A DNA stretch of 64,000 nucleotides from Raillietiella orientalis (GCA_036172245.1 JAYWIR010000043.1:1-64000); one strand, 5' to 3'. Counted from the stretch's first letter, positions 6,984 to 64,000 are shown. Notes: generated by a model from the sequence alone, not told the origin. Numbers and translations: made by a program.

Positions 6984-7156
6984 TTAAAGTCTCCCGCTAT
7001 CAGGTGCGCCCGCCGAAAGCCTGCTTCGGCCAACAAGTCTCGCCGCAGGGCTTCAAAGAACGCAGTGCGTTCTCCGCGCCTGTGGCTGCTGTAGTGCGCG
7101 TATACGTTCGTGACCACGAGATCGATCGACACGGACCACTTGAGAACAAGTTGCAT
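6984..7156 (-). mobile_element. APE endonuclease fragment of a host element, ending at GDFN
   Basis: Translates as KWSVSIDLVVTNVYAH...AHLIAGDFN, followed directly by the family A 5' end. Confidence 0.85.
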
Positions 7157-29285: not shown

Positions 29286-29304
29286 TCGAATGCTATACAC
29301 CCTC

Positions 29305-30947
29305 ACGGTGATGCGCTTTAAGAACCTTGGTGTGTCGTTGGATGACTCTTCCCCAGCGTATCGTGTTCCAGCAGCCTCCAAAAAGAAGAGAGGGCGATCA
29401 GCTTGTTCCTAGGCATCAGATTTTTCCTGCCGGAAAGGGCCGAGGTTTGTAACACGTTTGCGGCTCCTCTCTTTTGTTCCCTGCTTTTTGATTGCCCCCC
29501 GGAGGGAGGATAAAAAAGCGGAGAATGGTCCTCTACCGTATCGCCTTTTTGGGCAACAGGAGGGCGAAAGTCCGTTAAAAGGAATTGTGCGCTCCTCGTC
29601 TCAATGGCGGCATACGAATGCTAACGTTGGAGCGGCTGTAGCTTCAGCTACAGTTGCGTATGTTGGCCGTTGTACCGGAGTTGTGATGCACCTCCTGGTG
29701 TGTCCCTGCGCGTCTCCGCGTCACAGAAGCCACCGAGAAGATGAGACTCACGTCCTTTCTTTCACACCATCGCTCCCGCATCAACCGATGTGGGCTCCAG
29801 CTGCGGAGGGTGGCTACCTTGGTTCGGAAAAACCAGGGATGGATCACATATCGCCTAGCAAACAGTAGGCCTTGATTGCAGGAAATCATTCGCACGTGGG
29901 CACAGTGCGTCATACAACGCGATCAACATTAACGACGGTTCCTGTTTGGGTTTTACAGAAGTTACGCGCTCCGAGAGATCCTGGAGGATCCGAAGAAGCG
30001 AGCGTCGTAAGTAAGAACCCCCATTGCTGCTGCGCTGGCCTCCCTAAGAAAAGATCAGGACAGCGATGTTGCGGCGAAGTGGGAGGTTAATGTAACAATC
30101 TCCGAAGAAAAGAAGAAGCGAGGGAGAGTGGAAGACGGGCCAGTTAATATACGCTGCCATCAAGAGTACGCCTCCCAATGGACTTCTGCTCTAGGGCAGG
30201 CCGCTCGATGTTCCCATTGAACATCTGAAGTGACCCTCGGTGCTGATGAACACCTGGACCCTCCCTTTAAAATGGCGGAAGTCGGCTATACTGTTGCGGC
30301 ACTGGGAACTCCCCTACAACGCGCGTCGACTACTCTGGACCTGGGACGCGGTCGATCCCAACTGTTAGGTGTGGGGAACGGGAGACCCTCCCCCACCTTT
30401 CAATGGATTGTGTTGCCCTTTGGCCCCTTTGGTTACGCTTTGCCGCGGCCATCGGTATTCAATGTTGCAACCCCATGGACGCATTGAAAGCCCTTAACTT
30501 TGCCGACTCCCTGCAGCATTCGGCTGCGTTAGCAGCCCTGTGCCTTTGCGGGATCGTCGCCGCTTGCAGCAAGGCAACGGAAGGACCTTGCGATAAGGGT
30601 GATATCCGAAACATCGCCTAATTATTGAGGAGGGCGTCCAGATGGCCCCACCTGGATCATGGATTGCAGAAAGAGCTTGCCGATATGCAGCCAAGGATGC
30701 AGCGGTCCTAGCAGCAACTGTGCTCCTTTCCTGCGCTCTCTCAATTTTTTTTTTTTCTCGTTTTTTTTTTTTTCTCGTTTCGTTTATCTCCTTTTTCTCT
30801 GCTGCCGTGTTGGTCCGTGCTGGTCTGCGAACCGGTGCCCTGCATTCTCCGTGTTTCTTCATGCGTGGCTAGAAAACTGCTCCTGCTGCAGCACGTCTTT
30901 GTGAAGCTTATCTTTTAATGAACGACCCGGCGAAACCTGGGTGAAAA
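29305..30947 (+). mobile_element. Second 5'-truncated family B element, in tandem
   Basis: Starts near FKNLGV and is homologous to the previous copy. 3' end CCCGGCGAAACCTGGGTGAAAA. Confidence 0.82.
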
Positions 30948-33900
30948 TTGAAGGCTTTTCTCAAATCGACCACCACTGCAATGGCTCCGGATTCCGCTTT
31001 CCTTACTCAGCCATCTTTCCTTTTCTCTTTTCGGGAGAGAATGCAGGATTCAGTTGACAAACCTGCGAATCGCCGTCTTGCAACTGCCAAAATTTACCGG
31101 CGCAAAACCGGTTTGCTTCAACATGGTTCGTCCGGCAACAGCTATGCACTTCTCCGGACTCTCCACTGATTTTGCTATTTGTCTCTATCCCTCATTTCCT
31201 TGTTTTGCAAGCTGCTTTGCAACCCCGTTTCCTGTCATTTGACGACAGTTGCCTCTCTTGTGCAGATCTCCTCCTTTGAAGCGGAGTCGTACTCTAGTGA
31301 CCGAAACGAGTTAGGGACGACCTCAGTCGCTCACGGATCAGTAGCCATACTGCCATTAAGCAGCAGTCATTTGTGCACCAGGGAGATATGCTATGCCACA
31401 TAGAATTGATTAGACTACGCAGGCAGGCCGTTTTCCACCCGTGCTTTCAATCGACGATGGCGGAGGCGATCTCAGCCATCGTCAGATCTTGCTTTACGGT
31501 GTTCTCCACTTGCTTCCTCGATGAGGGCACGCCGTGTGGAAGCAGACTGCCCAAAATCGCCCTCATGTGCTCTTCTCTCGTGGAAGGAGCAGTAGACGTC
31601 CCGCAAAATACCTACCTGACGAGTCGGAACAGTGCGTCACTGCTGTACTGGATTCGTGTGTTTCGAAAATGGAGGCATTTTCCGGAACGGACCGTGTTGA
31701 CTCGACTACCTTTAGAAAATACTAGCTTCGGCCTCCAGAGGAAATGAAAAAAGAATACCGTTTCTCTGGCAGCAAAATAACCATGGAGAAGGCTGGCAAC
31801 ACTTTCTTCATTTTCAGCATTTTTCGAGAGACTCATATTAAGTCTCGCATTCAAGCCATTAGTCAAGAACATAAAATCCACTTTCGCATTCAGTCTTTAA
31901 TTCTATGTGTTTTTACAAACGGATGCCAGTGGAAAGGATTTTGTAAATACGGACCACATAACCTTGCATTCTGCAAGAGCATGGCTGCGCTCTTCTTTTT
32001 CTTGCAGTCAACCTTCTCTACGTCCAACTAGTTCCCTGTACAAACTCCCTGTTCAAATACCTTCCTTCGTGATACCGTGTTTGCTCTTTTCCGGAACCGC
32101 AATCTCATAACTGACTTTGTAAACATGCAGGAACGCAGTTCACCATCCTGCTAAGCTTTGCAACTTTTCTTTGCTTCCCAGGACGGGCTTTAGACATTCC
32201 TCCGCCAATGCTCGTGTCCTTAATTTCGCCGTCCGTCACCCTTAGGCCAGTTTCTTCCTCGGCTGCCTATGCTTCGCTTCACGCAAGCAGCCTACTGGGG
32301 TTCCCCAGCTATATGTAGGTGGCGGTGGCTTTTGTGACGTTGGATGCAAACGTGTCCTACCTGTAACTTTTCAACCACGTCAGCATACCAAGTCATTCGG
32401 CACACCTTCTCCGAGTTCTTCTTCGCATTACCTGCAATATGCAGCACTTCTTCTACCTTGGCTCGATCCCAGGCAGCTAGATTGCCAAAGACGCGAACTG
32501 GCGCTGCGAATTCTCTTTCCACTCTGTCCTGCTGGACCGTTCCTTGCTTCCCTGTATTTTTCCTATCTCAGCGCCCGCACTTCCGTCGCATTCACATTGC
32601 TCACGTCGCAACGGAAAGCATTTGCAATTGGTGAGAATTTCGGTTCACCTATGCATCAACCTCCAATGTCGACACCCTGAGAATGTACCCGGTCACCCCG
32701 AACATATTTACGTGCCGTCAAACGCTTCATTTTCCTCAGTTCCCTTCAAGTGCATACCCATTATGTCCACGCAATTCGAAAACTACAAGCCCTTTGTCTT
32801 ATAAACATGAATCTCCGAGTATGATGCATCCATCCATTACGTTCCTATTACCGAATAATGCCCCCTTTTCCAGTGAGAAGTCACGACGCAAACCATGAAC
32901 CCAAGAATATTTAATTTGCGCACATCTCCTCTACCCAACCTCGCAACCGCTACATGGAGGCCATTTATTCTCCTTCCCTGAGAGCAAGCACCCATCCACA
33001 TATAGGGGTTCCCATCCAGGAGATTCACGCATTCCAGGAAACTTGCTTAGCTCTAGAGCAAATCAGCCTCTTTTTTTACTGTTTACTCGTTTGGGGATCG
33101 TGAACAAGAACGGAAAAAGCGAATCCATCTCTTTCTTTCTCCCCTTGAACCCTTCCTCCTTCCTTTTGAATGCCGCAACCGTATGCGACTGGGAACGTCA
33201 TGCCGACATCCAATGTGGATCCCCTACGATTCCTTCCGGCTAAGGAGAAATCAATCGAAATGCAGCACGACAACCTGTTGGTTGCTGCGTCTTTGCACTT
33301 TGGCAATTGCAAGAAATGAAGTGTGCCAGCCGGATCTGCATAGCGAAAAACGCGGTAAATCGTTCTGCCTCTCCTTTAGTTGTGGTTTGTCATCTGTTAA
33401 GTAAAGGAACCATGGAAACGCCTGCGCGGCTTCCATTTTTCATTTTTAAATCCAAATCCCCAGTAGCAGGATGGACTGCTTAGGCGGCCAAATCTGCCAT
33501 CCTACCTACAGGGTTGTTCTGCTCCTTCTTAGGAGCAGAAACGATAAGGCTTTGGACAATATCAAGATTTTGCAGAAAACACAAATGTCCATCGCACTGG
33601 TGGAAATCCTGGATAGAAAGCGGAAAATCGAGATAAAACGGGGCATCCTTTTTAGAAGCGCCGAGGTCCTCCATCAGTACCGCAACGTCACAAGGGAGTT
33701 CACAAAAAAATCCAAGAACACCGAGTGGCCACCAGTCTCCCGGATTCTTTCCAAGCTAATTTCAGTACATCACCGTAGGCAGAAAGCATTGCAAGCGAGA
33801 GTGCACCGCCCAGGCAAAGCACCGTCCAACGGTGGTCATGGGGGTACAGCTTCTTGATGATCGTGGGCTGGTCAATCCAGGCTGCCTACTCTGCTGATAT

Positions 33901-41215: not shown

Positions 41216-41219
41216 GCAT

Positions 41220-41460: not shown

Positions 41461-41476
41461 CCTCCAAGGCAAGTTG

Positions 41477-47231: not shown

Positions 47232-47621
47232 TTTATCACTCGGGTGAAACGAAGCGTTTATTGTAAACTATCTGGGAACAGGGTTCCTGGACAAAGGGGA
47301 AAACAAGAGTCCAAGGGCGTGGGATACCCGACACGCAGGTCGGTATGCCAAAAGTCCTGAACGGGAGGGAAGGGACCGCAAATACACTACTATAAAAAAA
47401 TAAAAGAAAAATATGGAGGGCAGGGGAAAGGGATCTTTGATGAGTCCGTTCCTACCTTTCAAATCCGGCAATGGATGCCGGCGATCTCTCTCCTTACGCC
47501 CTGTGGCAGATGGGCCCACTCGGCAGCCGACGACATGGTTTTGCTGGCTAATCCGGTGAGCTGACGGAAGATGGCAGATAGGATCTGCTGTTCGCGACAA
47601 CCTCCCGGAATCCCTTGGCGA
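47232..47621 (-). mobile_element. Internally deleted element: linker stub joined to ORF2 C-terminus and 3' end
   Basis: KGFREVVANSR, then AHLPQGVRREIAGIHCRI*, then AATAAA...GTGATAAA. Confidence 0.7.
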
Positions 47622-49931
47622 GCGGACGGGCTTTTCCTGAGCTCCCGATCAAGTCGACAAAAAGCGGTTTTTTCTGTGTGTTTTGTTGTGCGAAACATGG
47701 TTGGTGTCCGATGGCAGCGATGCCTGAGGACGCCACGATGGAGGTAGGTGTGGGGGAGGCTCGCTCACCCTCACAGCCTGCAGAATCAGGGGCGTCCTCC
47801 CCGGAATCATCCCCAGCGACGACAAGGACGTGGGACGCCATGGTTTCCGCGCCGAGCGTGGAAACCTTAGCAGAGCAAGAGGCCTACAGGGCCTTAGGAT
47901 ATAAACCATTTCTAGTTTATAAGGTAGGACCCCTGTTTGATGGTCGCACCGCCCGGGCATTTAGTAGGGCACTGCGAGATTTCCCTGTACGAGAGGAGGA
48001 TATTGACGGCCTCTCCGTACTCAGCAAGGGGCAACGCGTGGTGGTCGTCTGCAAAGACATAGCCTTAGCACAGCGCCTCATTAAAACCCCGCTGAATGTG
48101 GATGGCAAGCAGATCCTGCAGGTTAGCATGGACCGCTCCGTAGTGGTCCATCTAAGCGGCATTACGAACAGCATGAAGCGATCTGCGGTGAGTAATGAAT
48201 TAAACAAATACGGTGAGATACACGCGTTGTGGCCAAAGCCTACCATTTTCGAAGGCTTTAATAGCTATTTTGGAGGCCAGGCTGCAGCGCGTGTAACGGT
48301 TAATGAGGGCAGTAACTTGCCCCACAAACTGGAGGTCGCAAAAGAATCCGTCGACCTCTGGTACGTGGGGAAACACCGCTATTGTAGCTACTGCGATGCA
48401 GTAGGGCACTTGCGTAAGCGGTGCCCGAATATCGAGTGCAACTTGTGCGGGATTAAGGGACACGTTCGTCGTGTGTGCCTCAAACGCCCCACCCCGGTGC
48501 CACCTGCTGCCAAAAAGGCACAGGCTAAAAAAGGAAAAAAGGTCGAAAGACCTCATCGCGAAACTCGCCGGCCCCAGCCGCCATCTCCTGTTCCTCCCAC
48601 CCAGGCGTCGGAGGAAAAACCCGCTGAAGACGCGGGAGAGGAAGAAGGATGGAAGCTGGTAAAGGCCAGAAAAGAGAAAAAAGTTCCCCCCGTGGAACCC
48701 GCGAGAGCGAAGAGAGAAAAGAGCGCAAAACCGAATAAACCCGGTCCGCGCTCGAAAACTCTTCGCGAGTGCACGGTGACACTCGAACGGATTGCCGTCC
48801 CCGAGGCTGCCACCCGGGGCGACGAGCCTCCGCTCGCCGTTTCCGCCGCGCCCGAGGTTCGCGACGACGAACCCTCTGTTTGCACAGAGGGTGAGCCGCG
48901 CGAAACGTGCGCCGAAAGCGAGGACGCCGCGTTTGCGCAGGCGGCGGAGGAGCTCGCGGCCACGCTGGCCGAGCGTGAGAACCCCTCGCGCAAGGCCGTG
49001 CGAAGGCCGGCTCCGGCGAGGAAGGCCCACAAAGGTGAGTTAGACCTGGGGGCCGGAAGCACATCCTCCTCCTCGGAGGCACCCCCCAGGAAGTCGGGAC
49101 GCAAGTCCCAGAAGCCCAGGAGGCGCCTTTCCTCCACCAGCGAGGAGGAGAAGACGGAAGCCGTCGCCAGCGTGGGAAATTCGCAGGAGGAATTCCCACG
49201 CTCGGAAGCCGTCGATGCGGCCACCCCCATGGAGGAGGGTGAACAGGGGGGTTAAGTCCCCCCTGCAGGCGCCGACCCTGAACAGCCCGCCCCCATGGAG
49301 GAGGGCGAACAGGTAGGCGCGACTCCACCTGCGGGTGATCCGGCCGACGCGCCGGCACCGATGGAGGAGGGGGACCAGGTGTCTTCAGCACCTGACCCCC
49401 CTTCTCCACCTAGCGTCCCGCCCCAGCAGGTGGCGGACGCCGCACTGCCATGTTCCCAGGAGTAACACCTGGGCTCGCCAGTCGCCGTCGGATTCGCGCG
49501 GCCTGTTGGAATGTCAACGGGCTGCGCGACGACGGTAACAGGCGAGATACAGCTGACACCCTGCGGGAGTTCGACCTGGCCCTGTTGCAGGAGATCCACG
49601 TGATCACCGCGGCAGACGTCCAGGAGATCGAGACGATCGCGGGGGGTCGGCTATACTGGCAATGCGGCATCCGCAACACCTGCGGGGTCGCGTTCTTCGT
49701 GAAGCCGGCCATCGACGCTGCCGTGAAGGGCGTGCGCTACGATCACGACGGACGGGTCGGTCAGCTGACTCTCAGCTGGTCCGACTCGATCGATCTGATC
49801 GTCACGAATGTGTACGCCCCAACCGGTCAAAAGGGATACAGCAACCGTACCAGGCTGCTTGAATCCCTGAAGCACGTCTGGCTGGCGAACACGAGCGTGC
49901 GGAAGGCTCACCTGAAAGCGGGAGATTTCAA
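47622..49931 (+). mobile_element. Family E element, copy 2; host of the family A array
   Basis: ORF1 plus APE domain up to AGDFN, where family A begins. Confidence 0.9.
47711..49465 (+). pseudogene. ORF1 (zinc-knuckle nucleic-acid-binding protein) with a premature TAA at 49253-49255
   Basis: Two CX2CX4HX4C motifs. Copy 1 has GCA at the position of the stop. Confidence 0.82.
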
Positions 49932-49939
49932 TCGAGTGC

Positions 49940-49952
49940 GGACGTGTTTTTC
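49940..49952 (+). promoter_or_regulatory. 5' GGACGTG-T-tract motif, candidate internal promoter element
   Basis: Also at 37865, 41479, 45201, 55855 and 61756, always within about 10 bp of an element 5' end. Confidence 0.45.
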
Positions 49953-50011
49953 TTCGCTCTCGTCTCCGTGCTTTCATCCGCTTCATCTTGGCGTCGTACA
50001 TTTTGACGACG

Positions 50012-51934
50012 ATGTCGACCCAACTTGAAGCTACTGAAGTTGGAGGAACAGCATCCGGATCTGCAATCGCGGAACCGACGGCCGCCTCCACTTCGTCTTT
50101 CTCGCCAATGGAGAGGAGTTTTGCTGACGTTGCTGCCACAGCAGCCGTCAAAGGGAAACCACTCGACGAGTCGGAGTTGCGGGCATACGTAGCCCAAGGC
50201 TATAGACCTGCTCTCCGATATAAGGTGAGTGGTTTTCTTTCTGCGCGCGACGGGAATCAGTTCAACGATGAACTGACGCGTGTTGGCGTGCGGGAGGAGG
50301 ACCTTCTCGCCATTATGCCCCTAAAAGACATGGGCTATTTCAAGGTGCGTTGCAAAGACGCTGCACTTGTGCAACGTTTGCTGCGCACCCCGTTGTCGAT
50401 CCGTGGCCAGAAGGTCTTCCCGGCCGCCATGGACGACTCATTTGTGGTGGAGATTTTCGACATCGAGTCGGAAATCTCCGATACTGATATTCGGAACGCG
50501 TTGGCGAAAGTCGCCACGGTCCATGCGCTGTGGAGGGTGCGTAGCAACCTCAAGGACTTCCCGTCCATACACAGCGGAGTCGCTGGAGTCCGGCTTACAA
50601 TGCCGGACCGCCGTCTGCTGCCTACCAAACTACAGGTGAATGACACGGTCGTTCACCTGTGGTTCGTGGGCAAAGTAAAAACGTGCGAGCAATGCGGGAA
50701 GGAGGGGCATTGTTTGGATAAATGCCCCTCTGGAAAATGCCGTTATTGCAAACTATCCGGGCACCAATTGAAAAATTGCCCGGATCTTTTGCGAAAAAGG
50801 GCAGCCGCGGAGCTCCATTTTAAAAAACAAAGCGCGGATAAAAAGAAAAAATCTGCGAAAAACCTGGAGACCCCACGGCAGAAATTCGGTAAAAACGCGA
50901 GGCGGAATGTCGCCCCAAAGCAGCAGGAAACCTCGCACGCGAAGCCCTGCGCACCCCCTCTCGCGGCAGGGGAGCCGCAAAAGAAAGGGTGCGGGGAATC
51001 CGGGGCAATGGTAAGTCCCCCTAGGCGCAATAGCTGTCCTTCCCAAGCACGCCCGACTCTCTCGGAGTTCGAGCAACCGGCGGGGACGTCAATGGACAAC
51101 GGCGGTAAGGACACTTCCAGTACCGTCAGATCCATTCCTTCACCTCCTGCAGTGGCTGAGAAGCCCAAATCGGGTAAGAAGGGTTGTGCCGTGTCGACTT
51201 CGAAAGTCGGCAAAAAAAAATCCGCGTCGCGATCCAACACCGCGAAAGCGGACAAAAATCTCACGCCGTCGCAGTCGGAGAGCAAGCTCTCGACTGGCGC
51301 GGATGCCATGCCAACGAAGGGATTAAAAGCCCTTCCGAAAGCAGCGTCCATGACGAGCGTGTCGGAGCCATCGAAAGGGCTCCCGTCCAAAGACGCGGAT
51401 GGCTTCAAAGATGGCCATGGAGCACAATCTCCATTTACGGCGCCACGCGAAGTGAGGAACCGTAATGAAGTAAAGAAGACTTCAGCAAAGGTCCCTCGTG
51501 CAACTGCGCGTGAGCACGCTGAAAACGCGCGCGCCAGGAAAGCAGCCGTCACCAAAAGCGATGCTCTGGTGACGGAAAACGAAAACAGGACAGCTGTCAA
51601 TCCAGCAGAACCTGTCACTGCTTCGCGGAAGGCCGAAATCCGATCGAACATGCGCCGGTCGGACTCCGAAATGGATGCCGTTCCGATCAGCGAGACGAGG
51701 ACAACTCGTTCGAAAGCGTGTGCGCGCCGATCAAAAGTAGGCAGCCAGGCAACGCTCGCCGCGAAGCAACGCGAAGTCTCCACGAAACCCGACGGGGTTC
51801 AGCCTGGCGTGGAGGCATTACATGCATGCAGCACGACAGAGGACGGTGGCGACCGTCCCCTCCAGCCAGTCGTGCTGCTCGCCGTCTGCTCGCCGGATAA
51901 AGCGAGCAAAAAGCCGCCACCGTCCCAGCAGTAA
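50012..51934 (+). CDS. ORF1 protein, family A (two CCHC knuckles, long low-complexity basic tail)
   Basis: Open from ATG 50012. CEQCGKEGHCLDKC and CRYCKLSGHQLKNC. Confidence 0.9.
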   Translation: MSTQLEATEVGGTASGSAIAEPTAASTSSFSPMERSFADVAATAAVKGKPLDESELRAYVAQGYRPALRYKVSGFLSARDGNQFNDELTRVGVREEDLLAIMPLKDMGYFKVRCKDAALVQRLLRTPLSIRGQKVFPAAMDDSFVVEIFDIESEISDTDIRNALAKVATVHALWRVRSNLKDFPSIHSGVAGVRLTMPDRRLLPTKLQVNDTVVHLWFVGKVKTCEQCGKEGHCLDKCPSGKCRYCKLSGHQLKNCPDLLRKRAAAELHFKKQSADKKKKSAKNLETPRQKFGKNARRNVAPKQQETSHAKPCAPPLAAGEPQKKGCGESGAMVSPPRRNSCPSQARPTLSEFEQPAGTSMDNGGKDTSSTVRSIPSPPAVAEKPKSGKKGCAVSTSKVGKKKSASRSNTAKADKNLTPSQSESKLSTGADAMPTKGLKALPKAASMTSVSEPSKGLPSKDADGFKDGHGAQSPFTAPREVRNRNEVKKTSAKVPRATAREHAENARARKAAVTKSDALVTENENRTAVNPAEPVTASRKAEIRSNMRRSDSEMDAVPISETRTTRSKACARRSKVGSQATLAAKQREVSTKPDGVQPGVEALHACSTTEDGGDRPLQPVVLLAVCSPDKASKKPPPSQQ

Positions 51935-54900
51935 TGCGGGGAATCGCGTCTTCTCGTCGTCTGTCCGTAACGTGTTGGAACGTGAACGGACTGCAGAACG
52001 ACGAGAAGAGGAGATTAGTAGCCAACGCCCTGCGCCCCTTCGACCTCGCGCTCCTGCAGGAGATTCACGTAATCTCCGACGAGCAGGCAGCCGAAATCGA
52101 GGAGCGCGCAGGCGGAACGCTACATTGGCGGTGCGGCGGCGCACACACGTGCGGCGTCGCGTTCCTCGTAAGAGGAAAAATGGCGGACGCGGTGCGTAGT
52201 GTTCGTTTCGATGACAACGGACGGATAGGCCAGCTTGTCATCAAGTGGTCCGAGTCCATCGATCTCGTCGTTACGAACGTCTACGCGCCGAGTGGCTCTC
52301 GCTACCTCGAAGAAAGAGTAGCTTTCTTTGGTGAGGTGCAGAGCCAGTGGCTCAACAACTCCGGTTTCCAAGTGGCGCACCTCGTCGCTGGGGACTTCAA
52401 CGTCCGCCTGCTCTCCGACGATTGGAGCCGCCCGAGGGAGCGCGCGCTTCCCATCGAGATGTGCGCGTCCGTGCACGCCGCCAACTTGATGGTCAGCGAA
52501 CCTGGAATGGAAAGATCGCTCGATCACGTTTTCCTCGATGAAAACCTGCATTCGCGTGTGGGCAGGAGAGGAAGATTGTTGACTAGGCTTTCTGACCACC
52601 ACAGGTTGGAGTTTGAGATCCTTCCGCCAGGCAGGGGGCTCCGTTGCAAAACTGGAGGATGCAGGCGGATTGGCTTAGCCAACCGGAGGCTGCGGAGCAT
52701 CTACGTGGATACCTCCGAGGCTTTGCCATTCAAGAACTTGCGGACTGGGACGATCTCAAAAGATCTGTCCGCTAGTTCTGCTGCCAATTCCCCTTGCACC
52801 GGCTTCCACGCGGTTTCGGAGAGAGCGTGGCCAACAGTAGAGACTTTCTGCAGGCCCGCACGTTTTCGAGACGCGCGGATGTCGGGCGTCTCTCAGAGTA
52901 CAAGGCGAGGGCCGAGCGCCAGGTCTGGCAGTCCGGAGCAGCATGCCTGTTGGACGACAAGGGCCAGGAATGTTCGGCCCCAGCCGAAGTACGCCGCATT
53001 GTGAGACGCTACTACTCCTCGCTCTACGCGGAATGCCCGACGGAGGATATTCTTTCTGAGATACTCCTGTCTCAGGATGCTCGTGTTGTCGGCGAGGAGG
53101 AACGCGAACGTCTCGACGAGCCCTTCACGGCGGATGAATTTTCGTCCGCCATCGCTGGGCTGAAGAGACGAAAGGCGCCAGGCGAGGATGGGCTCCCTGC
53201 AGAGTTTTATCAGTGCTTTGCAGTGGAGCTCATTCCTTTGATGCTGAAACTCGCGACGCTGATGAGTGAATCCGGAAATGTCCCTGATTCCTTCCGCTCA
53301 GCGAAGGTGCGTCTCCTGCCGAAAGGCGGAGACTTGCGCCAACTTAACAACTGGCGTCCGATCACCTTGGTGAACTCGGACGTCCAGTTGTTTTCCAAGC
53401 TGTGGGTCGCGCGGTTAGGAAGAATCGCGGAATCTGTGGTGAGCCCGGAACAAACCTACGCGGTTCCGGGACGATCCATGGAGGCGAACATCCTTTTCGC
53501 GCGTACATGGATGCAGCTGCGGGAAGTTGTGGCGCAGCAAAGCCAGGCTGCTGCGAAAGTCACTGCCGCAGGCAAAAAGAACAGGCGCCGACGGCAGGAG
53601 GGAACGCCAGGTGCCTTGGCGGTCGCGGTCGATCTCCACAAGGCGTTCGACTGCGTAAACCAGAAGCTGCTTTTGGAGCTTATGGAACGCCTTGGGTTCC
53701 CGGCGCAACTCCTGCTGTATTTGCGCGCGAGCTGGCGCCACGCGCTAACCTGCATCACTTTTAGCGGCTGCCGCGTGTATGGTATTCCCGTTCGTAGGGG
53801 CATCCGACAGGGCGACAGCTTAAGCCCGTTGCTCTTCAGCATCTTCTTTGAGTTGGTTCTAAGAGCATACAGGCTGACGCTGTCTCACTTGCCAAGCTCC
53901 TGCCCGGGAACGCCTGCCGTGGCCGCCTACGCTGATGACCTGCTTCTTCTGCTCCCCATGTCCACCCCGACGTCCAGTGTCGAGGATTTCTTCGACCTGA
54001 TTCGTCGGGGAGCGGGCGTGAGCGTGAACAGAGAGAAGAGCGTGGTCGTTCCTGTGGGTACGTCGTGGGAGGGGCAGTCCGACTGGATCCGCCTGGGGAT
54101 CCCCACGGGCGGGTACTTTAAGTACCTTGGCGTTCCGTTGGGCGCTTTCGGCGCAGCCGAAGCGTGGGCGGACTGTCTTCAGAAAGCAGAGTTGGCCATC
54201 AGCCCGTTCTTGAACGGCAAGTTTACCTTGCAGGAACGGGCGACTATTTGGAACACCTTTGTGGCCCCCCTCCTCCGTCCCCTGTTTTTTGTTTTGGACC
54301 CCCCCTATGCGGCAAAACAGCGGGCTAAGCGCCTGCTCAGGAACGCTCTCTGGGGTCCGGCGAGATCCAGGATCCGCCTTAAAGATTTGTCAGCTCCGCG
54401 TCGGGATGCGGGTTTGGGTATCCTGACAATGGAGCGAATCGGACTGCAGGTGCAGTTCCGACTGCTGGCACTGTGTGCCCAGCTATGGACATCCCCCCTG
54501 TGTGTGCCAGCTCGCATTCTCCTGCGGAGATGCGCCGTTAGCGGAGGATTTCTCTCGCTTTTGCCGGGCACTCAATACAGGAAGCGGGGTTTCGGGTTTC
54601 CATTGCGGCAGTTGACCGCACTTCTGGAAGCACACTCTTGGATCTCCTGCCGCCCAATGAACTTTGAAGCTTGGCGGCAGGAGTCTGTTGAATCCTGGGC
54701 GGCGTTGCAAGGAATACGTCCTGAAGATCTTCGCCCCCTGCGCCAATTTTTTCCACGATCCTTGGAAGAAGTACTGCAGGACGAGGTGAAGTTTTCTACC
54801 CTGGCTGCCACGCCTCTTGCCGCAGCGCTGTCTGCCCTCAGGGCAAGAAACGACAGTTACCAACCGGCGAGGTGGGAGGTTTCCTGCACGATAGCGGGAA

Positions 54901-55526
54901 GAACCAAACTCCTTGGCACCTGGAAGACAAGTGAGTTGGCGGACGCCGCCACTCCTCGGGTTACTGCAAAGGGACTCCTCCGGTGGGCAGAAGAACTTGC
55001 TGTCACCCCCGAAGAACTTGTAGTCCCTCCACAGTGTAAGGACAGTTCGCTGCTCCCCCTTTCTGGGGAACAAGCCGTGCTGCTTTTCGTTCACTGGGGT
55101 TTTCAGTGCAACGAGCGTTGGCATCGTGACTCCGGGGGACTTGCGTCTGCGAACTGCGTTCGGTGCGGATCGACGGAGTCGATTCCGCACCTACTTCTGG
55201 ACTGCGGTGTCCTACAAGGACTGTGGCGTAGGCTGGCAACAGCACTATTGCATCCCGTTGACACCGCAAGAGACTTGCTGCGACGATTCTTCACGCCGAG
55301 CGGGCTTTCAGTAAGCGCAAGGATTGCAACCATCGGTTGCATCCGCGCGATAGTTTCCGTCCGCCAGGCGTTGGTAATCAACGGACAGTACCAAGAGGTA
55401 ATCAGCAAAGCATCCTTCTACATGGGAGCATCCGCTAGATGGCCTCATTTGACAGAGGAGACAAAGAGGAATCTCGCCGCAATACACCGCCGGTTTACAC
55501 CCCCTCATCAGCGGCCAACCCGGTGA
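51934..55526 (+). pseudogene. ORF2 (APE endonuclease, RT, CCHC) with a 1-bp deletion near 52639 and TAG at 52773-52775
   Basis: WNVNG, LQE, GDFN, SDH, KAPGEDG, KAFD, QGD, YADD (53928-53939) and CVRCGSTESIPHLLLDC. Lesions identified by comparison with copy 2. Confidence 0.92.
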
Positions 55527-55809
55527 TCATTGCCCTACCCTCCATAAACTAAATTTGTATTTTCTTTTTACACCCGCGTCCCCATAGGCTCCGGAACATT
55601 TGAGGTGCTCATCGTTTAAATCCCCGTGAGTACGGAGCCTAACCAAAAACCCTTTTCCCTTCCCTCCAGTTTTTGATTTTTGTTTGTTTCCCCTCATTCC
55701 CCCCACGCTGCGAGCGGTTTGTTTACCAGGCCGGCGTGGCGGTAATTTTTCTATGTTCTCTGTCGTTCTGTTGGTTGGGGACATTGTCCCTGACCAGTTT
55801 ATTATTATT

Positions 55810-55839
55810 AATAAACGCCCCGGCGTGACCGGGTGATAA
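55810..55839 (+). terminator. Element 3'-terminal signal: AATAAA plus CCCGG-N5-CCGGG hairpin plus TGATAA
   Basis: A related motif occurs at about ten other element ends in the window. Confidence 0.6.
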
Positions 55840-55926
55840 ATTTCAATCGAGTGCGGACGTGTTTTTCTTCGCTCTCGTCTCCGTGCTTTCATCCGCTTCA
55901 TCTTGGCGTCGTACATTTTGACGACG

Positions 55927-57846
55927 ATGTCGACCCAACTTGAAGCTACTGAAGTTGGAGGAACAGCATCCGGATCTGCAATCGCGGAACCGACGGCCGC
56001 CTCCACTTCGTCTTTCTCGCCAATGGAGAGATTTGCTGACGTTGCTGCCACAGCAGCCGTCAAACGAAAACCACCCGACAAGTCGGAGTTGCGGGCATAC
56101 GTAGCCCAAGGCTATAGACCTGCTCTCCGAAATAAGGTCAGTGGTTTTCTTTCTGCGCGCGACGGGAATCAGTTCAACGATGAACTGACCCGTGTTGGCG
56201 TGCGGGAGGAGGACCTTCTCGCCATTATGCCCGTAAAAGACATGGGCTATTTCAAGGTGCGTTGCAAAGACGCTGCACTTGTGCAACGCTTGCGGCGCAC
56301 CCCGTTGTCGATCCGTGGCCAGAAGGTCTTCCCGGCCGCCATGGACGACTCATTTGTGGTGGAGATTTTCGACATCGAGTCGGAAATCTCCGATACTGAT
56401 ATTCGGAACGCGTTGGCGAAATTCGCCACGGTCCATGCGCGGTGGAGGGTGCGTAGCAACCTCAAGGACTTCCCGTCCATACACAGCGGAGTCGCTGGAG
56501 TCCGGCTTACAATGCCGGACCGCCGTCTGCTGCCCACCAAACTACAGGTGAATGACACGGTCGTTCACCTGTGGTTCGTGGGCAAAGTAAAAACGTGCGA
56601 GCAATGCGGGAAGGAGGGGCATTGTTTGGATAAATGCCCTTCTGGAAAATGCTGTTATTGCAAACTATCCGGGCACCAGTTGAAAAATTGCCCGGATCTT
56701 TTGCGAAAAAAGGCAGCCGTGGAGCTCCATTTTAAAAAACAAAACGCGGATAAAAAAAAAAAATCTGCGAAAAACCTGGAGACCCCACGGCAGAAATTCG
56801 GTAACAACGCGAGGCGGAATGTCGCCCCAAAGCAGCAGGACACCTCGCACGCGAAGCCCTGCGCACCCCCTCTCCCGGCAGGGGAGCCGCAAAAGAAAGG
56901 GTGCGGGGAATCCGGGGCAATGGTAAGTCCCCCTAGGCGCAATAGCTGTCCTTCCCAAGCACGCCGGGCTCTCTCGGAGTTCGAGCAACCGGCGTGGACG
57001 CCAATGGACAACGGCGGTAAGGACACTTCCAGTACCGTCAGATCCATTCCTTCACCTCCTGCAGTGGCTGAGAAGCCCAAATCGGGTAAGAAGTGTTGTG
57101 CCGTTTCGACTTCGAAAGTCGGCAAAAAAAAATCCGCGTCGCGATCCAACACCGCGGAAGCGGAGAAAAATCTCACGCCGTCGCAGTCGGAGAGCAAGCT
57201 CTCGACTGGCGCGGATGCCATGCCAACGAAGGGATTAAAATCCCTTCCGAAGGCAGCGTCCATGACGAGCGTGTCGAAGCCATCCAAAGTGCTCCCGTCC
57301 AAAGACGCGGATGGCTTCAAAGATGGCAATGGAGCACAATCTCCATTTACGGCGCCACGCGAAGTGAGGAACCGTAATGAAGTAAAGAAGACTTCAGCAA
57401 AGGTCCCTCGTGCAACTGCGCGTGAGCACGTTGAAAACGCGCGCGCCGGGAAAGCAGCCGTCACCAAAAGCGATGCTCAGGTGACGGAAAACGAAAACAG
57501 GACAGCTGTCAATCCAGCAGAACCTGTCACTGCTTCGCGGAAGGCCGAAACCCGATCGAACATGCGCCGGTCGGACTCCGAAATGGATGCCGTTCCGATC
57601 ACCGAGACGAGGACAACTCGTTCGAAAGCGTGTGCGCGCCGATCAAAAGTAGGCAGCCAGGCAACGCTCGCCCCGAAGCAACGCGAAGTCTCCACGAAAC
57701 CCGACGGGGTTCAGCCTGGCGTGGAGGCATTACTTGCATGCAGCACGACAGAGGAGGGTGGCGACCGTCCCCTCCAGCCAGTCGTGCTGCTCGCCGTCTG
57801 CTCGCCGGATAAAGCGAGCAAAAAGCCGCCACCTTCCCAGCAGTAA
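55927..57846 (+). CDS. ORF1 protein, family A copy 2
   Basis: Open frame, near-identical to copy 1. Confidence 0.9.
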   Translation: MSTQLEATEVGGTASGSAIAEPTAASTSSFSPMERFADVAATAAVKRKPPDKSELRAYVAQGYRPALRNKVSGFLSARDGNQFNDELTRVGVREEDLLAIMPVKDMGYFKVRCKDAALVQRLRRTPLSIRGQKVFPAAMDDSFVVEIFDIESEISDTDIRNALAKFATVHARWRVRSNLKDFPSIHSGVAGVRLTMPDRRLLPTKLQVNDTVVHLWFVGKVKTCEQCGKEGHCLDKCPSGKCCYCKLSGHQLKNCPDLLRKKAAVELHFKKQNADKKKKSAKNLETPRQKFGNNARRNVAPKQQDTSHAKPCAPPLPAGEPQKKGCGESGAMVSPPRRNSCPSQARRALSEFEQPAWTPMDNGGKDTSSTVRSIPSPPAVAEKPKSGKKCCAVSTSKVGKKKSASRSNTAEAEKNLTPSQSESKLSTGADAMPTKGLKSLPKAASMTSVSKPSKVLPSKDADGFKDGNGAQSPFTAPREVRNRNEVKKTSAKVPRATAREHVENARAGKAAVTKSDAQVTENENRTAVNPAEPVTASRKAETRSNMRRSDSEMDAVPITETRTTRSKACARRSKVGSQATLAPKQREVSTKPDGVQPGVEALLACSTTEEGGDRPLQPVVLLAVCSPDKASKKPPPSQQ

Positions 57847-60800
57847 TGCGGGGAATCGCGTCTTCTCGTCGTCTGTCGGTAACGTGTTGGAACGTGAACG
57901 GACTGCAGAACGACGAGAAGAGGCGATTAGTAGCCAACGCCCTGCGCCCCTTCGACATCGCGCTGCTGCAGGAGATTCACGTAATCTCCGACGAGCAGGC
58001 AGCCGAAATCGAAGAGCGCGCAGGCGGAACGCTACATTGGCGGTGCGGCGGAGCACACACGTGCGGCGTCGCGTTCCTCGTAAGAGGAAAAATGGCGGAA
58101 GCGGTGCGTAGTGTTCGTTTCGATGACGACGGACGGATAGGCCAGCTTGTCATCAAGTGGTCCGAGTCCATCGATCTCGTCGTTACGAACGTCTACGCGC
58201 CGAGTGGCTCTCGCTACCTCGAAGAAAGAGTAGCTTTCTTTGGTGAGGAGCAGCGCCAGTGGCTCAACAACTCCGGCTTCCAAGTGGCGCATCTCGTCGC
58301 TGGGGACTTCAACGTCCGCCTGCTCTCCGACGATTGGAGCCGCCCGAGGGAGCGCGCGCTGCCCATCGAGATGTGCGCGTCCGTGCACGCCGCCAGCTTG
58401 ATGGTCAGCGAACCTGGAATGGAAAGATCGCTCGATCACGTTTTCCTCGATGAAAACCTGCATTCGCGTGTGGGTAGGAGAGGAAGATTGTTGACTGAGC
58501 TTTCTGACCACCACAGGTTGGAGTTTGAGATCCTTCCGCCAGGCAGGGGGCCTCCGTTGCAAAGCTGGAGGATGCAGGCGGATTGGCTTAGCCAACCGAA
58601 GGCTGCGGAGCATCTACGTGGATACCTCCGGGGCTTTGCCATTCAAGAACTTGTGGACTGGGACGATCTCAAAAGATCTGTCCGCGAGTTCTGTTGCCAA
58701 TTCCCCTTGCACCGGCTTACACGCGGTTTCGGAGAGGGCGTGGCCAACAGTAGAGACTTTCTGCAGGCCCGCACGTTTTCGAGACGCGCGGATGTCGGGC
58801 GCCTCGCAGAGTACAAGGCGAGGGCCGAGCGACAGGTCTGTCAGTCCGGAGCAGCATGCCTGTTGGACGACAAGGGCCAGGAATGTTCGGCCCCAGCCGA
58901 AGTACGCCGCTTTGTGAGACGCTACTACTCCTCGCTCTACGCGGAATCCCCGACGGAGGATATTCTTTCTGAGATACTCCTATCTCAGCATGCTCGTGTT
59001 GTCGGTGAGGAGGAACGCGAACGTCTCGACGAGTTCTTAACGGCGGATGAATTTTCGTCCGCCATCGCTGGGTTGAAGAGACGAAAGGCGCCAGGCAAGC
59101 ATGGGCTCCCTGCAGAGTTCTATGGGTGCTTTGCAGTGGAGCTCATTCCCTTGATGCTGAAACTCGCGACGCTGATGAGTGAATCCGGGAATGTCCCGGA
59201 TTCCTTCCGCTCAGCGAAGGTGCGTCTCCTGCCGAAAGGCGGAGACTTGCGCCAACTTAACTGCTGGCGTACCATCACCTTGGTGAACTCGGACGTCAAG
59301 TAGTTTTCCAAGCTGTGGGTCGCGCGGTTAGGAAGAATCGCGGAATCTTTGGTGAGCCCGGAACAAACCTACGCGGTTGCGGGACGATCCATGGAGGCGA
59401 ACATCCTTTTCGCGCGTACATGGATGCAGCTGCAGGAAGTTGTGGCGCAGCAAAGCCAGGCTGCTGCGAAAGTCACTGCCGCAGGCAAAAAGAACAGGCG
59501 CCGACGGCAGGAGGGAACGCCAGGTGCCTTGGCGGTCGCGGTCGATCTCAACAAGGCGTTCGACTGCGTAAACCAGAAGCTGCTTTTGGAGCTTATGGAA
59601 CGCTTTGGGTTCCCGGCGCAACTCCTGCTGTATTTGCGCGCGTGCTGGCGCCACGCGCTAACCTGCATCACTCTTAGCGGCTGCCGCGTGTATGGTATTC
59701 CCGTTCGTAGGGGCATCCGACAGGGCGACAGCTTAAGCCCGTTGCTCTTCAGCATCTTCTTTGAGTTGGTGCTAAGAGCATACAGGCTGACGCTGTCTCA
59801 CTTGCCAAGCTCCTGCCCGGGAACGCCTGCCGTGGCCGCCTACGCTCATGACCTGCTTCTTCTGCACCCCATGTCCACCCCGGCGTCCAGTGTCGAGGAT
59901 TTCTTCGACCTGATTCGTCGGGGAGCGGGCGTGAGCGTGAACAGAGAGAAGAGCGTGGTCGTTCCTGTGGGTACGTCGTGGGAGGGGCAGTCTACCTGGA
60001 TCCGCCTGGGGATCCCCACGGGCGGGTACTTTGAGTACCTTGGCGTTCCGTTGAGCGCTTTCGTGCAAGCCAACGTGGACAGCTGTCTTCAAGCAGAGTT
60101 GGCCTGGCCGTTCATTAACAACAAGTTTACCTTGAAGGAACGGGCCATTATTTGGGCCTTTGTGGCCCCCCTCCTCCGTCCCCTGTTTTTTGTTTTCGAC
60201 CTTCCCTATGCGGCAAAACAGCGGGCTAAACGCCTGCTCAGGAACGCTCTCTGGGGTCCGGCGAGATCCAGGATCCGCCTTAAAGATTTGTTAGCTCCTC
60301 GTCGGGATGCTGGTTTGGGTATCCAGACAATGGAGCGAATCGGACTGCAGGTGCAGTTCCGACTGCTGGCACTGTGTGCCCAGCTATGGACATCCCCCCT
60401 GTGTGTGCCAGCTCGCATTCTCCTGCGGAGATGCGCCGGCAGTGGTAGATTTCTCTCGCTTTTGCCGGGCACTCAATACAGGAAGCGGGGTTTCGGGTTT
60501 CCATTGCGGCAGTTGACCGCACTTCTGGAAGCACACTCTTGGATCTCCTGCCGCCCAATGAACTTTGAAACTTGGCGGCAGGAGTCTGTTGAATCCTGGG
60601 CGACGTTCCAAGGAATACGCCCTGAAGATCTTCGCCCCCTGCGCCAATTTTTTCCACGATCCTTGGGAGAAGGACTGCAGGACGAGGTGAAGTTTTCTAC
60701 CCTGGCTGCCACGCCTCTTGCCGCAGCGCTGTCTGCCCTTAGGGCGAGAAACGACAGTTACCAACCGGCGAGGTGGGAGGTTTCCTGCACGATAGCGGGA

Positions 60801-61427
60801 AGAACCAAACTCCTTGGCGCCTGGAAGACGAGTGAGTTGGCGGACGCCGCCACTCCTCGTGTTAATGCAAAGGGACTCCTCCGGTGGGCAGAAGAACTTG
60901 GTGTCACCCCCGAAGAACTTGTAGTCTCTCCACAGTGTATGGACAGTTCGTTGCTCCCCCTTCCTTGGAAACAAGCCGTGCTGCTTTTCGTTCACTGGGG
61001 TTTTCAGTGCAACGAGCGTTGGCATCGTGACTCCGGGGAACTTGCGTCTGCGAACTGCGTTCGGTGCGGATCGACGGAGTCGATTCCGCACCTACTTCTG
61101 GAGTGCGGTGTCCTACAAGGACTGTGGCGTAGGCTGGCAACAGCACTATTGCATCCCGTGGACACCGCAAGAGACTTGCTGCGACGATTCTTCACGCCGA
61201 GCGGGCTTTCACTAAGCGCAAGGATTGCAACCATCGGTTGCATACGCGCGATAGTTTCCGTCCGCCAGGCGTTGGTAATCAACGGACAGCACCAAGAGGT
61301 AATTAGCAAAGCATCCTTCTTCATGGGAGCAACCGCTAGATGGCCTCATTTGACAGAGGAGACAAAGAGGAATCTCGCCGCAATACACCGCCGGTTTACA
61401 CACCCTCATCAGCGGCCAACCCGGTGA
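57846..61427 (+). pseudogene. ORF2 copy 2 with TAG at 59301-59303 and YADD changed to YAHD
   Basis: tac gct cat gac at 59841-59852. Several small deletions at about 60060-60160. Confidence 0.9.
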
Positions 61428-61747
61428 TCACTGCCCTACCCTCCATGAACTAAATTTGTATTTTTTTTTTACACCCGCGTCTTCATAGGCTCCGGAACAT
61501 TTTAGGTGCTCATCGTATAAATCCCCGTGAGTACGGAGCCTAACCAAAAACCCGTTACCCTTCCCTCCAGTTTTTGATTTTTGTTTGTTTCCCCTCATTT
61601 CCCCCACGCTGCGAGCGGTTTGTTTACCAGGCCTGCGTGCCGGTAATTTTTCTATGTTCTCTGTCGTTCTCTTGGTTGGGGACATTGTCCCTGACCAGTT
61701 TATTATTATTAAAAAACGCCCCGGCGTGACCGGGTGATAAATTTCAA

Positions 61748-64000
61748 TCGAGTGCGGACGTGTTTTCTTCGCTCTCGTCTCCGTGCTGCTTTCATCCGCC
61801 ATCTTGGCGTCGTACATTTTGCGACGACGATGTCGACCCAACTTGAAGCTACTGAAGTTAAAGGAACAGCATCCGGATCACACAATGGGAACCGACGGCC
61901 GCCTCCACTTCGTCTTTCTCGCCGATGGAGAGGAGTTTTGCTGACGTTGCTGCCACAGCAGCCGTCAAAGGGAAACCACTCGACGAGTCGGAGTTGCGGG
62001 CATACGTACCCCAAGGCTATAGACCTTCTCTCCGATATAAGGTGAGTGGCTTTCTTTCTGCGCGCGACGGAAATCAGTTCAACGATGAACTGACCCGTGT
62101 TGGCGTGCGGGAGGATGACCTTCTCGCCATTATGCCCGTAAAAGACATGGGCTATTTCAAGGTGCGTTGCAAAGACGTTGCACTTGTGCAACGCTTGCTG
62201 CGCACCCCGTTGTCGATCCGTGGCCAGAAGGTCTTCCCGGCCGCCATGGACGACTCATTTGTGGCGGAGATTTTCGACATCGATTCGGAAATCTCCGATA
62301 TTGATATTCGGAACGCGTTGGCACAATTCGCCACGGTCCATGCGTTGTGGAGGGTGCGTAGCAACCTCAAGGAGTTTTCGTCCATACACAGCGGAGTCGC
62401 TGGAGTCCGGCTTACAATGCCGGACCGCCGTCTGCTGCCCACCAAACTACAGGTGAAAGACACGGTCGTTCACCTGTGGTTCGTGGGCAAAGTAAGAACG
62501 TGCGAGCAATGCGGGAAGGAGAGGCATTGTTTCGATAAATGCCCTTCTGGAAAATGCCGTTATTGCAAACTATCCGGGCACCAATTGAAAAATTGCCCGG
62601 ATCTTTTGCGAAAAAAGGCAGCCGCAGAGCTCCATTTTAAAAAACAAAGCGCGGATAAAAAGAAAAAATCTGCGAAAAACCTGGAGACTCCAAGGCAGAA
62701 ATTCCGAAATAACGCGAGGCGGAATGTCGCCCCAAAGCAGCAGGAAACCTCGCACGCGAAGCCCTGCGCGCCCCCTCTCGCGGCAGGGGAGCCGCAAAAG
62801 AAAGGGTGCGGGGAATCCGGGGCAATGGTAAGTCCCCCTAGGCGCAATAGCTGTCATTCGCAAGCACGCCCGGCTCTTTCGGAGTTCGAGCAACCGGCGG
62901 GGACGTCAATGGACAACGGCGGTAAGGACACTTCCAGTACCGTCAGATCCATTCCTTCACCTCCTGCAGTGGCTGAGAAGCCCAAATCGGATAAGAAGGG
63001 TTGTGCCGTGTCGACTTCGAAAGTCGGCAAAAAAAAATCCGCGTCGCGTTCCAACACCGCGAAAGCGGAGAAAAATCTCACGCCGTCGCAATCGAAGAGG
63101 AAGCTCTCGACTGGCGCGGATGCCATGCCAACGAAGGGATTAAAATCCCTTCCGAAGGCAGCGTCCATGACGAGCGTGTCGAAGCCATCCAAACTGCTCC
63201 CGTCCAAAGACGCGGATGGCTTCAAAGATGGCACTGGAGCACAATCTCCATTTACGGCGCCACGCGAAGTAAGGAACCGTAATGAAGTAAAGAAGACTTC
63301 AGCAAAGGTCCCTCGTGCAACTGCGCGTGAGCACGCTGAAAACGCGCGCGCCGGGAAAGCAGCCGTCACCAAAAGCGATGCTCTGGTGACGGAAAACGAA
63401 AACAGGACAGCTGTCAATCCAGCAGAACCTGTCACTGTTTCGCGGAAGGCCGAAACCCGATCGACCATGCGCCGGTCGGACTCCGAAATGGATGCCGTTC
63501 CGATCACCGAGACGAGGACAACTCGTTCGAAACCGTGTGCGCGCCGATCAAAAGTAGGCAGCCAGGCAACTCTATCCGCGAAGCCACGCGAAGTCTCCAC
63601 GAAACCCGACGGGGATAAGCCTGGCGTGGAGGCATTACATGCATGCAGCACGACAGAGGACGGTGGCGACCGTCCCCTCCAGCCAGTCGTGCTGCTCGCC
63701 CTCTGCTCGCCGGATAAAGCGAGCAAAAAGCCGCCACCTTCCCAGCAGTAATGCGGGGAATCGCGTCTTCTCGTCGTCTGTCCGTAACGTGTTGGAACGT
63801 GAACGGACTACAGAACGACGTGAAGAGGTGATTAGTAGCCAACGCCCTGCGCCCCTTCGACCTCGCGCTCCTGCAGGAGATTCACGTAATCTGCGACGAG
63901 CAATCAACCGAAATCGAGGAGCGCGCAGGCGGAACGCTACATTGGGGGTGCGGCGGCGCACACACGTGCGGCGTTGCGTTCCTCGTAAGAGGAAAAATGG
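61748..64000 (+). mobile_element. Family A element, array copy 3, running off the window
   Basis: Starts 5901 bp after copy 2. TAATG at 63749-63753. Confidence 0.93.
61925..63751 (+). CDS. ORF1 protein, family A copy 3 (ATG at 61830 is out of frame because of indels)
   Basis: 608 open codons, near-identical to copies 1 and 2. Confidence 0.8.
   Translation: MERSFADVAATAAVKGKPLDESELRAYVPQGYRPSLRYKVSGFLSARDGNQFNDELTRVGVREDDLLAIMPVKDMGYFKVRCKDVALVQRLLRTPLSIRGQKVFPAAMDDSFVAEIFDIDSEISDIDIRNALAQFATVHALWRVRSNLKEFSSIHSGVAGVRLTMPDRRLLPTKLQVKDTVVHLWFVGKVRTCEQCGKERHCFDKCPSGKCRYCKLSGHQLKNCPDLLRKKAAAELHFKKQSADKKKKSAKNLETPRQKFRNNARRNVAPKQQETSHAKPCAPPLAAGEPQKKGCGESGAMVSPPRRNSCHSQARPALSEFEQPAGTSMDNGGKDTSSTVRSIPSPPAVAEKPKSDKKGCAVSTSKVGKKKSASRSNTAKAEKNLTPSQSKRKLSTGADAMPTKGLKSLPKAASMTSVSKPSKLLPSKDADGFKDGTGAQSPFTAPREVRNRNEVKKTSAKVPRATAREHAENARAGKAAVTKSDALVTENENRTAVNPAEPVTVSRKAETRSTMRRSDSEMDAVPITETRTTRSKPCARRSKVGSQATLSAKPREVSTKPDGDKPGVEALHACSTTEDGGDRPLQPVVLLALCSPDKASKKPPPSQQ

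Follow-up and report, generated by a model that had tools for sequence, protein, structure and literature searches.

We analysed one strand of a 64,000-nucleotide (nt) stretch of Raillietiella orientalis DNA (GCA_036172245.1 JAYWIR010000043.1:1-64000; hereafter the window, meaning the whole stretch) and found in it a long interspersed nuclear element (LINE), here named family A, that is likely to be sequence-specific. Its proposed target is some 15-25 nt long (...AGCGGGAGAYTTYAATC...) and encodes the AGDFN active-site motif in the APE endonuclease domain of other LINEs, so that A probably homes into rival LINEs rather than landing at random. What can be read directly is a fixed position and orientation of the insertions, a target duplication in one host, resumption of the reading frame of that host behind the insertion, and 9-nt spacers between the units of a head-to-tail array.

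Family A joins two different host LINEs at the same base

The window contains four 5' ends of A. Two of them follow another A unit, and the other two (2/2) abut a sequence encoding ...AGDFN, in the sense orientation relative to the host. The first-pass annotation of this DNA had quoted the two latter junctions as cacctgaaagcgggagatttcaa followed by tcgagtgcggacgtg on the plus strand (break at 49931/49932) and cacctgatagcgggagactttaa followed by tcgagtactggcgtg on the minus strand (break at 6984/6983), and had proposed that A entered two host families at the same base and in the same orientation. Both strings are present as quoted, and both junctions outside the array agreed with this proposal. 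The Asp and Asn residues of GDFN are catalytic in the L1 endonuclease. In the first host (host 1, or H1), the peptide before the junction reads ...PTGQKGYSNRTRLL...KAHLKAGDFN (the frame also contains ...NVYAPTGQKGYSNRTRLL...KAHLKAGDFN). The Pfam Exo_endo_phos match in frame 49414-50028 covered profile positions 3-156 of 225 and stopped there, and the APE domain of host 1 is therefore truncated at the GDFN motif. In the second host (host 2, or H2), the corresponding peptide is ...HYSSHRRGERTAFF...RAHLIAGDFN. The 5' side of host 2 is bordered by a plus-strand reverse transcriptase (RT) piece, E, at 7183-8930, and its nearest relative in the window is element F (74% nucleotide identity).

Over the 58 codons preceding the junction, DNA identity between the two hosts is 63% and protein identity 52%, whereas the A copies that they carry are 89-92% identical. 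The annotation had taken the differing host peptides as a sign of independent events and had named a single duplicated locus as a finding that would speak against it; these identities exclude the duplicated locus and indicate that A inserted on two separate occasions. In their last 25 nt the hosts reach an identity of 84%, against 56-76% for all other cross-family pairs, and have AGCGGGAGAYTTYAATC in common. The chance that two random insertions in a 3.6-kb ORF2 (the second open reading frame, ORF, of a LINE) would hit the same base on the same strand is about 1.4e-4.

A second copy of host 1, H1b, lies at 45272-47230 and is 87% identical to host 1. In H1b (45192-47234), the inverted 3' end of X, an A-like element, interrupts the APE at residue 81, and the 5' end of host 1 follows directly (47235-47660). 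A contig from the public sequencing run X1 shows the same opposite-strand joint, from 49650 to 55840.

A nine-nucleotide duplication spans the codons of the active-site motif

The 5' end of A begins with GAGTGC (GAGTGCGGACGTG...), at 49934 on the plus strand and 6981 on the minus strand. The 3' end reads ...CCGGGTGATAA, with GTGATAA as the last bases, at 55839 and 61740. This terminus was compared with the 3' ends read in the related LINE families of the window, which are made of AATAAA, a short hairpin (CCCGG-loop-CCGGG) and an A-rich tail (TG-AA); GTGATAA itself is common to A, X and E. Because the hairpin and GTGATAA fix the 3' end of A, the next nine bases, ATTTCAATC, are flanking sequence and not part of the element. 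The same nine bases are found just 5' of the first array unit and between consecutive units (Table 1). In three contigs of run X1, ...GTGATAA ATTTCAATC continues into TCCGCCTGCTAACAGTTGATCC..., which in the frame of the host is translated as DFNLRLLTVDPKT (compare DFNVRLLSDD in A and DFNVRLLAAA in F). We read DFNLRLLTVDPKT as a plain continuation of the APE domain, indicating that host 1 was once an uninterrupted APE gene into which A inserted with a 9-nt duplication. The two bases TC that followed the break as it was first placed belong to host 1, because they are contained in the resumed host sequence, and A therefore starts at GAGTGC.

The duplication spans the Asp-Phe-Asn codons. For host 1 it measures 9 nt, as read at the left flank, in the two spacers and in the three contigs; the 3' flank of host 2 falls outside the window. 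The 9-mers of host 1 (ATTTCAATC) and host 2 (ACTTTAATC) differ only at synonymous positions, as would be expected of host and not of element DNA. Insertion "exactly within" the Asn codon, as originally annotated, holds for the GDFN-coding position. The exact base depends on how the boundary is drawn, and the break is better placed two bases to the right; with the 9-nt duplication, the first nick would lie in the Asp codon (G/AT, the slash marking the break) and the second one base beyond the Asn codon. Similarly, the expected return of the host APE past the array was found in the X1 contigs, with the letters ATTTCAATC-TCCGCCTGC... in place of the anticipated ATTTCAAC-GT....

Table 1 Positions of the elements, hosts and target sequences discussed in the text.
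Feature	Position	Strand	Description
A unit 1	49934..55839	+	Full length, 5906 nt; 5' untranslated region (UTR) about 80 nt, ORF1, ORF2 with APE and RT, 3' hairpin and GTGATAA
A unit 2	55849..61740	+	Full length, 5892 nt; open ORF1; ORF2 interrupted by a single in-frame stop (59301-59303)
A unit 3	61750..64000	+	Cut by the window end; 95-96% identical to units 1 and 2
Inverted A copy	3264..6981	-	A positions 1-3718; interrupted by element C at RT motif A
GDFN codons of A itself	58302..58313; 52390-52401; 4525-4514	+; +; -	GGG GAC TTC AAC then GTC; unoccupied
Host 1 (H1) ORF1	47582..49255	+	Open frame of 557 residues; weak C2H2 zinc-finger match
Host 1 APE endonuclease, N-terminal part	49414..49933	+	Ends ...KAHLKAGDFN plus one base
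Left copy of the 9-nt target duplication	49925..49933	+	ATTTCAATC; host 1 (G)AT TTC AAT C, just 5' of unit 1
Spacer between units 1 and 2	55840..55848	+	ATTTCAATC
Spacer between units 2 and 3	61741..61749	+	ATTTCAATC
Host 2 (H2) APE fragment	6982..7189	-	...NVYAHYSSHRRGERTAFF...RAHLIAGDFN plus one base
Host 2 target 9-mer	6982..6990	-	ACTTTAATC; differs from host 1 only at two synonymous third positions
C, C-type LINE (APE and RT)	1..3263	+	5' part outside the window; antisense in the inverted A copy at ...VDLNKAF/D
I, C-type LINE, 3' part	27920..29286	+	Followed by 8-nt spacer TCGAATGC
J, C-type LINE	29296..30947	+	Head to tail with I, which lies upstream; truncated on its 5' side at around RT residue 735
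RT fragment of a different LINE, host of I/J	30948..31295	-	Ends ...AVVVDLRKAF at the junction
Shared hairpin 3' ends	3241-3263, 13007-13029, 30926-30947, 41439-41460, 42248-42226(-), 55818-55840, 61719-61741

Sites hit by A differ in spelling from those left empty

Seven APE motif sites were counted in the window once two motif (regular-expression) matches outside APE domains had been dropped; two are filled by A and five are empty. Both filled sites are spelled AAT-C and all five empty sites AAC-G (three in A, one in C and one in F). The filled targets read GGA GAY TTY AAT followed by C, unlike the motif carried by A itself. In this comparison, which covers only five families, the split in spelling may reflect a sequence requirement of A and a sparing of its own copies.

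C-type LINEs repeat the pattern at another catalytic motif

A comparable arrangement was found for the C-type LINEs C, I and J, which are 72-81% alike and share the 3' end ...CCGGGTG(G/A)AAA. Comparison with intact A units placed the break made by C in the inverted A copy at ...GTC GAT CTC AAC AAG GCG TTC GA/C, in RT motif A and in antisense orientation. J adjoins the minus-strand RT of the other host at the same KAF position. Among the seven motif-A sites in the window, a count that leaves out two regular-expression matches outside RT domains, two are filled by C-type elements. Judged by these junctions, the C-type LINEs represent a second site-specific family, inserted antisense at KAF/D in two different hosts. 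The I-J pair fits repeated insertion at one site and not unequal crossing-over, because the two units are unequal (J being 5'-truncated) and a short target-like spacer stands between them.

Family A is an L1-like LINE with an APE endonuclease

Self-comparison of the window gave a size of 5.9 kb for the A unit. The window holds three head-to-tail units on the plus strand (49934-64000) and one inverted, truncated copy on the minus strand (6981-3264); the array units are 95-97% identical to one another and 89-92% identical to the inverted copy. Each full unit is made of a 5' leader of about 80 nt, followed by ORF1 and then ORF2, which encodes the APE endonuclease and the RT in this order. ORF1 is an open frame of about 640 residues with its ATG at 50012 in unit 1 and 55927 in unit 2. 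It had no Pfam match, and the nearest Atlas clusters, animal CCHC/RNA-binding ORF1-like proteins, are a lead only. In ORF2 of units 1 and 2, Pfam searches returned Exo_endo_phos (PF03372, E 2e-14) and RVT_1 (PF00078, E 4e-20 to 2e-13). Human LINE-1 ORF2p was the top solved-structure match for the part from the APE to the start of the RT (E 8e-24), aligning LVAGDFNVRL of A with LIMGDFNTPL. For the RT part, silkworm-type RT entries came first, with human LINE-1 ORF2p close behind (about 1e-12 to 1e-10). A thus shows the order of ORF1 upstream of ORF2, the order of APE before RT and the kinship to L1 ORF2 that characterise the L1 superfamily, and its coding sequence identifies it as an L1-like LINE, autonomous and equipped with an APE endonuclease, a label drawn from its solved-structure matches. 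The A units lack a poly(A) tail; at their 3' ends AATAAA and a 5-bp hairpin come before the final GTGATAA. The absence of poly(A) is no bar to membership of the L1 superfamily, yet it is unlike mammalian L1.

ORF2 of unit 1 has a single frameshift, near 52638, where a run X1 contig carries an extra C. Because of this extra base, the frameshift may be an assembly error, in which case unit 1 would be intact. The 5' ends of the related LINE families share GGACG(T/G)NNTTTT (at 41480, 47620, 45200 and 49940), and these shared 5' and 3' signals may serve common recognition by reverse transcriptases or promoters.

A protein search with the RT part of A gave five matches, of which the sole near one, P0001, is 53% identical and lies on a 2870-nt metagenome contig. 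An exact 32-nt stretch from the 5' end of A had no match in metagenome contigs. A profile built from the A RT and P0001 found 80 loci in these contigs, 22-38% identical, and none of the 80 carries the hairpin-tail at the 3' end or the 5' motif of the family. An Rfam scan of the whole window returned no family at the gathering score, including any 5' self-cleaving ribozyme, and the five weak matches around the A unit junction were all far under threshold. The z-scores obtained by folding the 5' 92 nt of A and three 3' ends, -0.5 to -1.6, are not distinctive.

A proposed mechanism and its alternatives

The steps by which A could have reached these sites are modelled on established target-primed reverse transcription. 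The A endonuclease would nick the antisense strand of the host within the Asp codon (G/AT in the sense strand), where the 9-mer has its left end. The freed 3' end would then prime reverse transcription of an A RNA ending in ...GUGAUAA, and an RNA tail reading through into the 9-mer may aid annealing, as in R1, where read-through target sequence at the 3' end of the RNA provides precise priming. Cleavage of the sense strand 9 nt downstream, a single base beyond the Asn codon, and joining of the full-length cDNA at that place would produce the duplication. The duplication would restore the site beside an intact downstream host, allowing more A insertions and the growth of a head-to-tail array with 9-mer spacers. 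The motif of A itself, GGG GAC TTC AAC GTC, which is unhit in the three A copies that hold it, would spare A from its own activity.

Several points weigh against homing of A into the GDFN-coding site. Only two independent events per family are available, all from one window, and the region is a nest of LINEs within LINEs, so that insertion into a LINE is unsurprising by itself. The A copy in host 2 has no 3' junction, this having been removed by C and by the window start, and the duplication is therefore seen for host 1 only. Run X1 is perhaps the source sample of the window and hence not independent, and its three contigs perhaps all represent the end of this one array. In two other X1 contigs, what follows an A-like 3' end after ...GATAAAT is CTCGGCCGCTCC... 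(also given as CTCGGCCGCTCCTCCTGC...) and not the 9-mer, and run X1 has 88 further loose ends beyond those listed. Moreover, the specificity of the endonuclease, read-through priming and self-immunity are what we infer from the sequence. The sequence behind the loose end at 55841 had no match within the window. Read mapping left 56028-56500 without cover, and runs X2 and X3 were almost without matches; neither the gap nor these two runs is informative either way.

The main alternative is that A is drawn to LINE clusters regionally, through chromatin, a centromere or heterochromatin as proposed for Zepp-like elements, the identical junction then reflecting a local nick preference or coincidence. 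The window is indeed a dense nest in which D, X, E and N form single junctions at various places. We nevertheless consider a regional preference unlikely, as the same base, the same strand and a near-identical 17-mer were used in hosts that are only 63% identical, an outcome with the low random chance given above. The C-type family repeats the pattern at another fixed site, and spacers of 9 nt point to one site having been used repeatedly.

The host pieces could also be 5' add-ons, acquired when the enzyme jumped from the 5' end of the A RNA onto the mRNA of another LINE. With a length of only some 200 nt and a 5' side that is itself cut, host 2 resembles such a short add-on. A jump of this kind would leave no host sequence after the 3' end of A, whereas the 9-nt duplication and a resumed APE frame are in fact found there; the array spacers carry synonymous bases of the host 1 type, and host 1 reaches upstream through its whole ORF1. 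Two jumps to the same base in two mRNAs, without homology to the 5' end of A, would also be required, and we regard template switching as quite improbable.

False joins in a repeat-rich contig are a very improbable source of the junctions. The region is highly repetitive, and the X1 contig that contradicts the unit 1 frameshift at 52638 points to small assembly errors. However, a 3755-nt X1 contig starting from 49904 crosses from host 1 into A (with 28-30 nt on the host side, and covering the host 1 junction alone), and the 5' end of A shares no sequence with the APE DNA at the junction, which leaves no repeat from which a false join could arise. Finally, copying of one ancestral insertion by segmental duplication or gene conversion has nothing in its favour beyond the shared junction and is refuted by the identities reported above, since duplicated flanks would match as well as the elements do.

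With site-specific insertion of A as the preferred reading, the A and C-type results can tentatively be joined in a wider one, which we hold to be possible rather than probable. Related L1-like LINEs would form a guild, each homing into the coding site of a catalytic motif of its rivals, A in sense orientation at APE GDFN and the C-type elements in antisense orientation at RT motif A. The first nick would fall in a catalytic Asp codon each time, and selection on the enzyme of the victim would keep the targets in place. Each hit would disable a competitor and rebuild the landing site, so that arrays grow, and the attacker would escape by carrying AAC-G and not AAT-C.

Comparison with known site-specific elements

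The known targets of site-specific LINEs are rRNA genes, small RNA genes, telomeres, microsatellites and DNA transposons, and few APE endonucleases with long defined recognition sites are known (R1Bm, TRAS1 and Tx1). R2 uses a restriction-like endonuclease and not an APE. Like R1/R2 in 28S rRNA genes and TRAS/SART in telomeric repeats, A occupies a fixed site in a fixed orientation within a conserved, multicopy target that is hard to mutate. Their targets, by contrast, are genes or repeats needed by the cell, whereas the target of A is a rival parasite and the copy that is hit is disabled.

A close likeness is to the Tx1 clade, in which LINEs with an APE endonuclease enter a different multicopy mobile element at a single fixed sequence. 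According to extracts of PMC4494074, the target of Tx1 of Xenopus is the piggyBac-type element Tx1D, and tandem SINEU-3 copies in crocodilian Mariner-N4_AMi, described as "sandwiching a TSD" (target-site duplication), are explained by sequential insertion. The A array has the same tandem layout as SINEU-3. Extracts of PMC5035012 list transposons among the targets of specific non-LTR (long terminal repeat) elements, and according to those of PMC4640811 the target-specific elements of the R1 and Tx1 clades carry an endonuclease derived from APE. The transposon targets known for the Tx1 clade are DNA transposons, whereas that of A is the coding DNA of LINEs, at the active site of the enzyme class to which its own endonuclease belongs. 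A also differs in ending with a hairpin and GTGATAA, and it is likened to Tx1 by its insertion behaviour and not by clade placement.

Zepp and Zepp-like L1 elements of green algae are described in extracts of PMC8226300 and PMC3446292 as nested in GC-rich clusters, with arrays and 5'-truncated copies. The window resembles such clusters, as L1-type LINEs inserted in earlier copies within a local cluster are found in it. It differs from them in that the A array is built of full-length units. Zepp-like clusters are further characterised by a green-algal host and by a single cluster per chromosome, at the centromere. The extracts of these sources and of Chlamydomonas preprints mention no fixed nucleotide target within a coding motif; the original Zepp papers may say more. 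In the literature searched, no LINE is described as targeting the sequence that encodes ORF2 in other LINEs. By analogy with the systems above, A is likely to work as a site-specific LINE of the Tx1 or R1 type, its novelty lying in a target within the coding DNA of a LINE catalytic motif.

If this is correct, A would be a parasite of parasites, landing in the DNA that encodes the active site of other LINEs. Such a target could not drift without killing the enzyme of the victim, and it would be renewed whenever the victim multiplies. Each hit would remove a competitor at no cost to the cell, which would offer a concrete and testable case of competition between mobile elements. Insertion of this kind would also explain the build-up of LINE-in-LINE nests and head-to-tail arrays, and the two families would add two more natural APE endonucleases with long defined sites.

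Other junctions and features of the window

In a tblastn map, nested LINE fragments run throughout 1-14.7 kb and 38-64 kb, and the stretch that separates these two parts holds older remains richer in AT. The G+C content is 40-50% at 14700-38200, compared with 55-61% in the LINE nests, and only degraded LINE fragments were seen there; none of the 48 ORFs of at least 100 residues in 14.7-38.2 kb (from 128 ORFs of at least 70 residues) matched a Pfam family. The window contained no tRNAs and no telling tandem repeats.

Single junctions were found at other places. D lies antisense in the APE of H1c and X antisense at APE residue 81 of H1b, while E is antisense at residue 307 of F and N antisense at ORF1 residue 262 of H1d. 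A site shared by X and D in H1-type APEs was considered and rejected, as a hairpin search placed the end of D at 13029, which leaves some 28 nt between the two sites. At 40979-41480, three pieces stand head to tail: M1, whose 3' UTR ends near 41220, M2, which ends at 41460, and a full-length H1-type 5' end at about 41470. M2 is a copy reduced to the end of ORF2 and the 3' UTR, and a 19-nt spacer separates it from the H1-type 5' end, giving the whole an array-like appearance.

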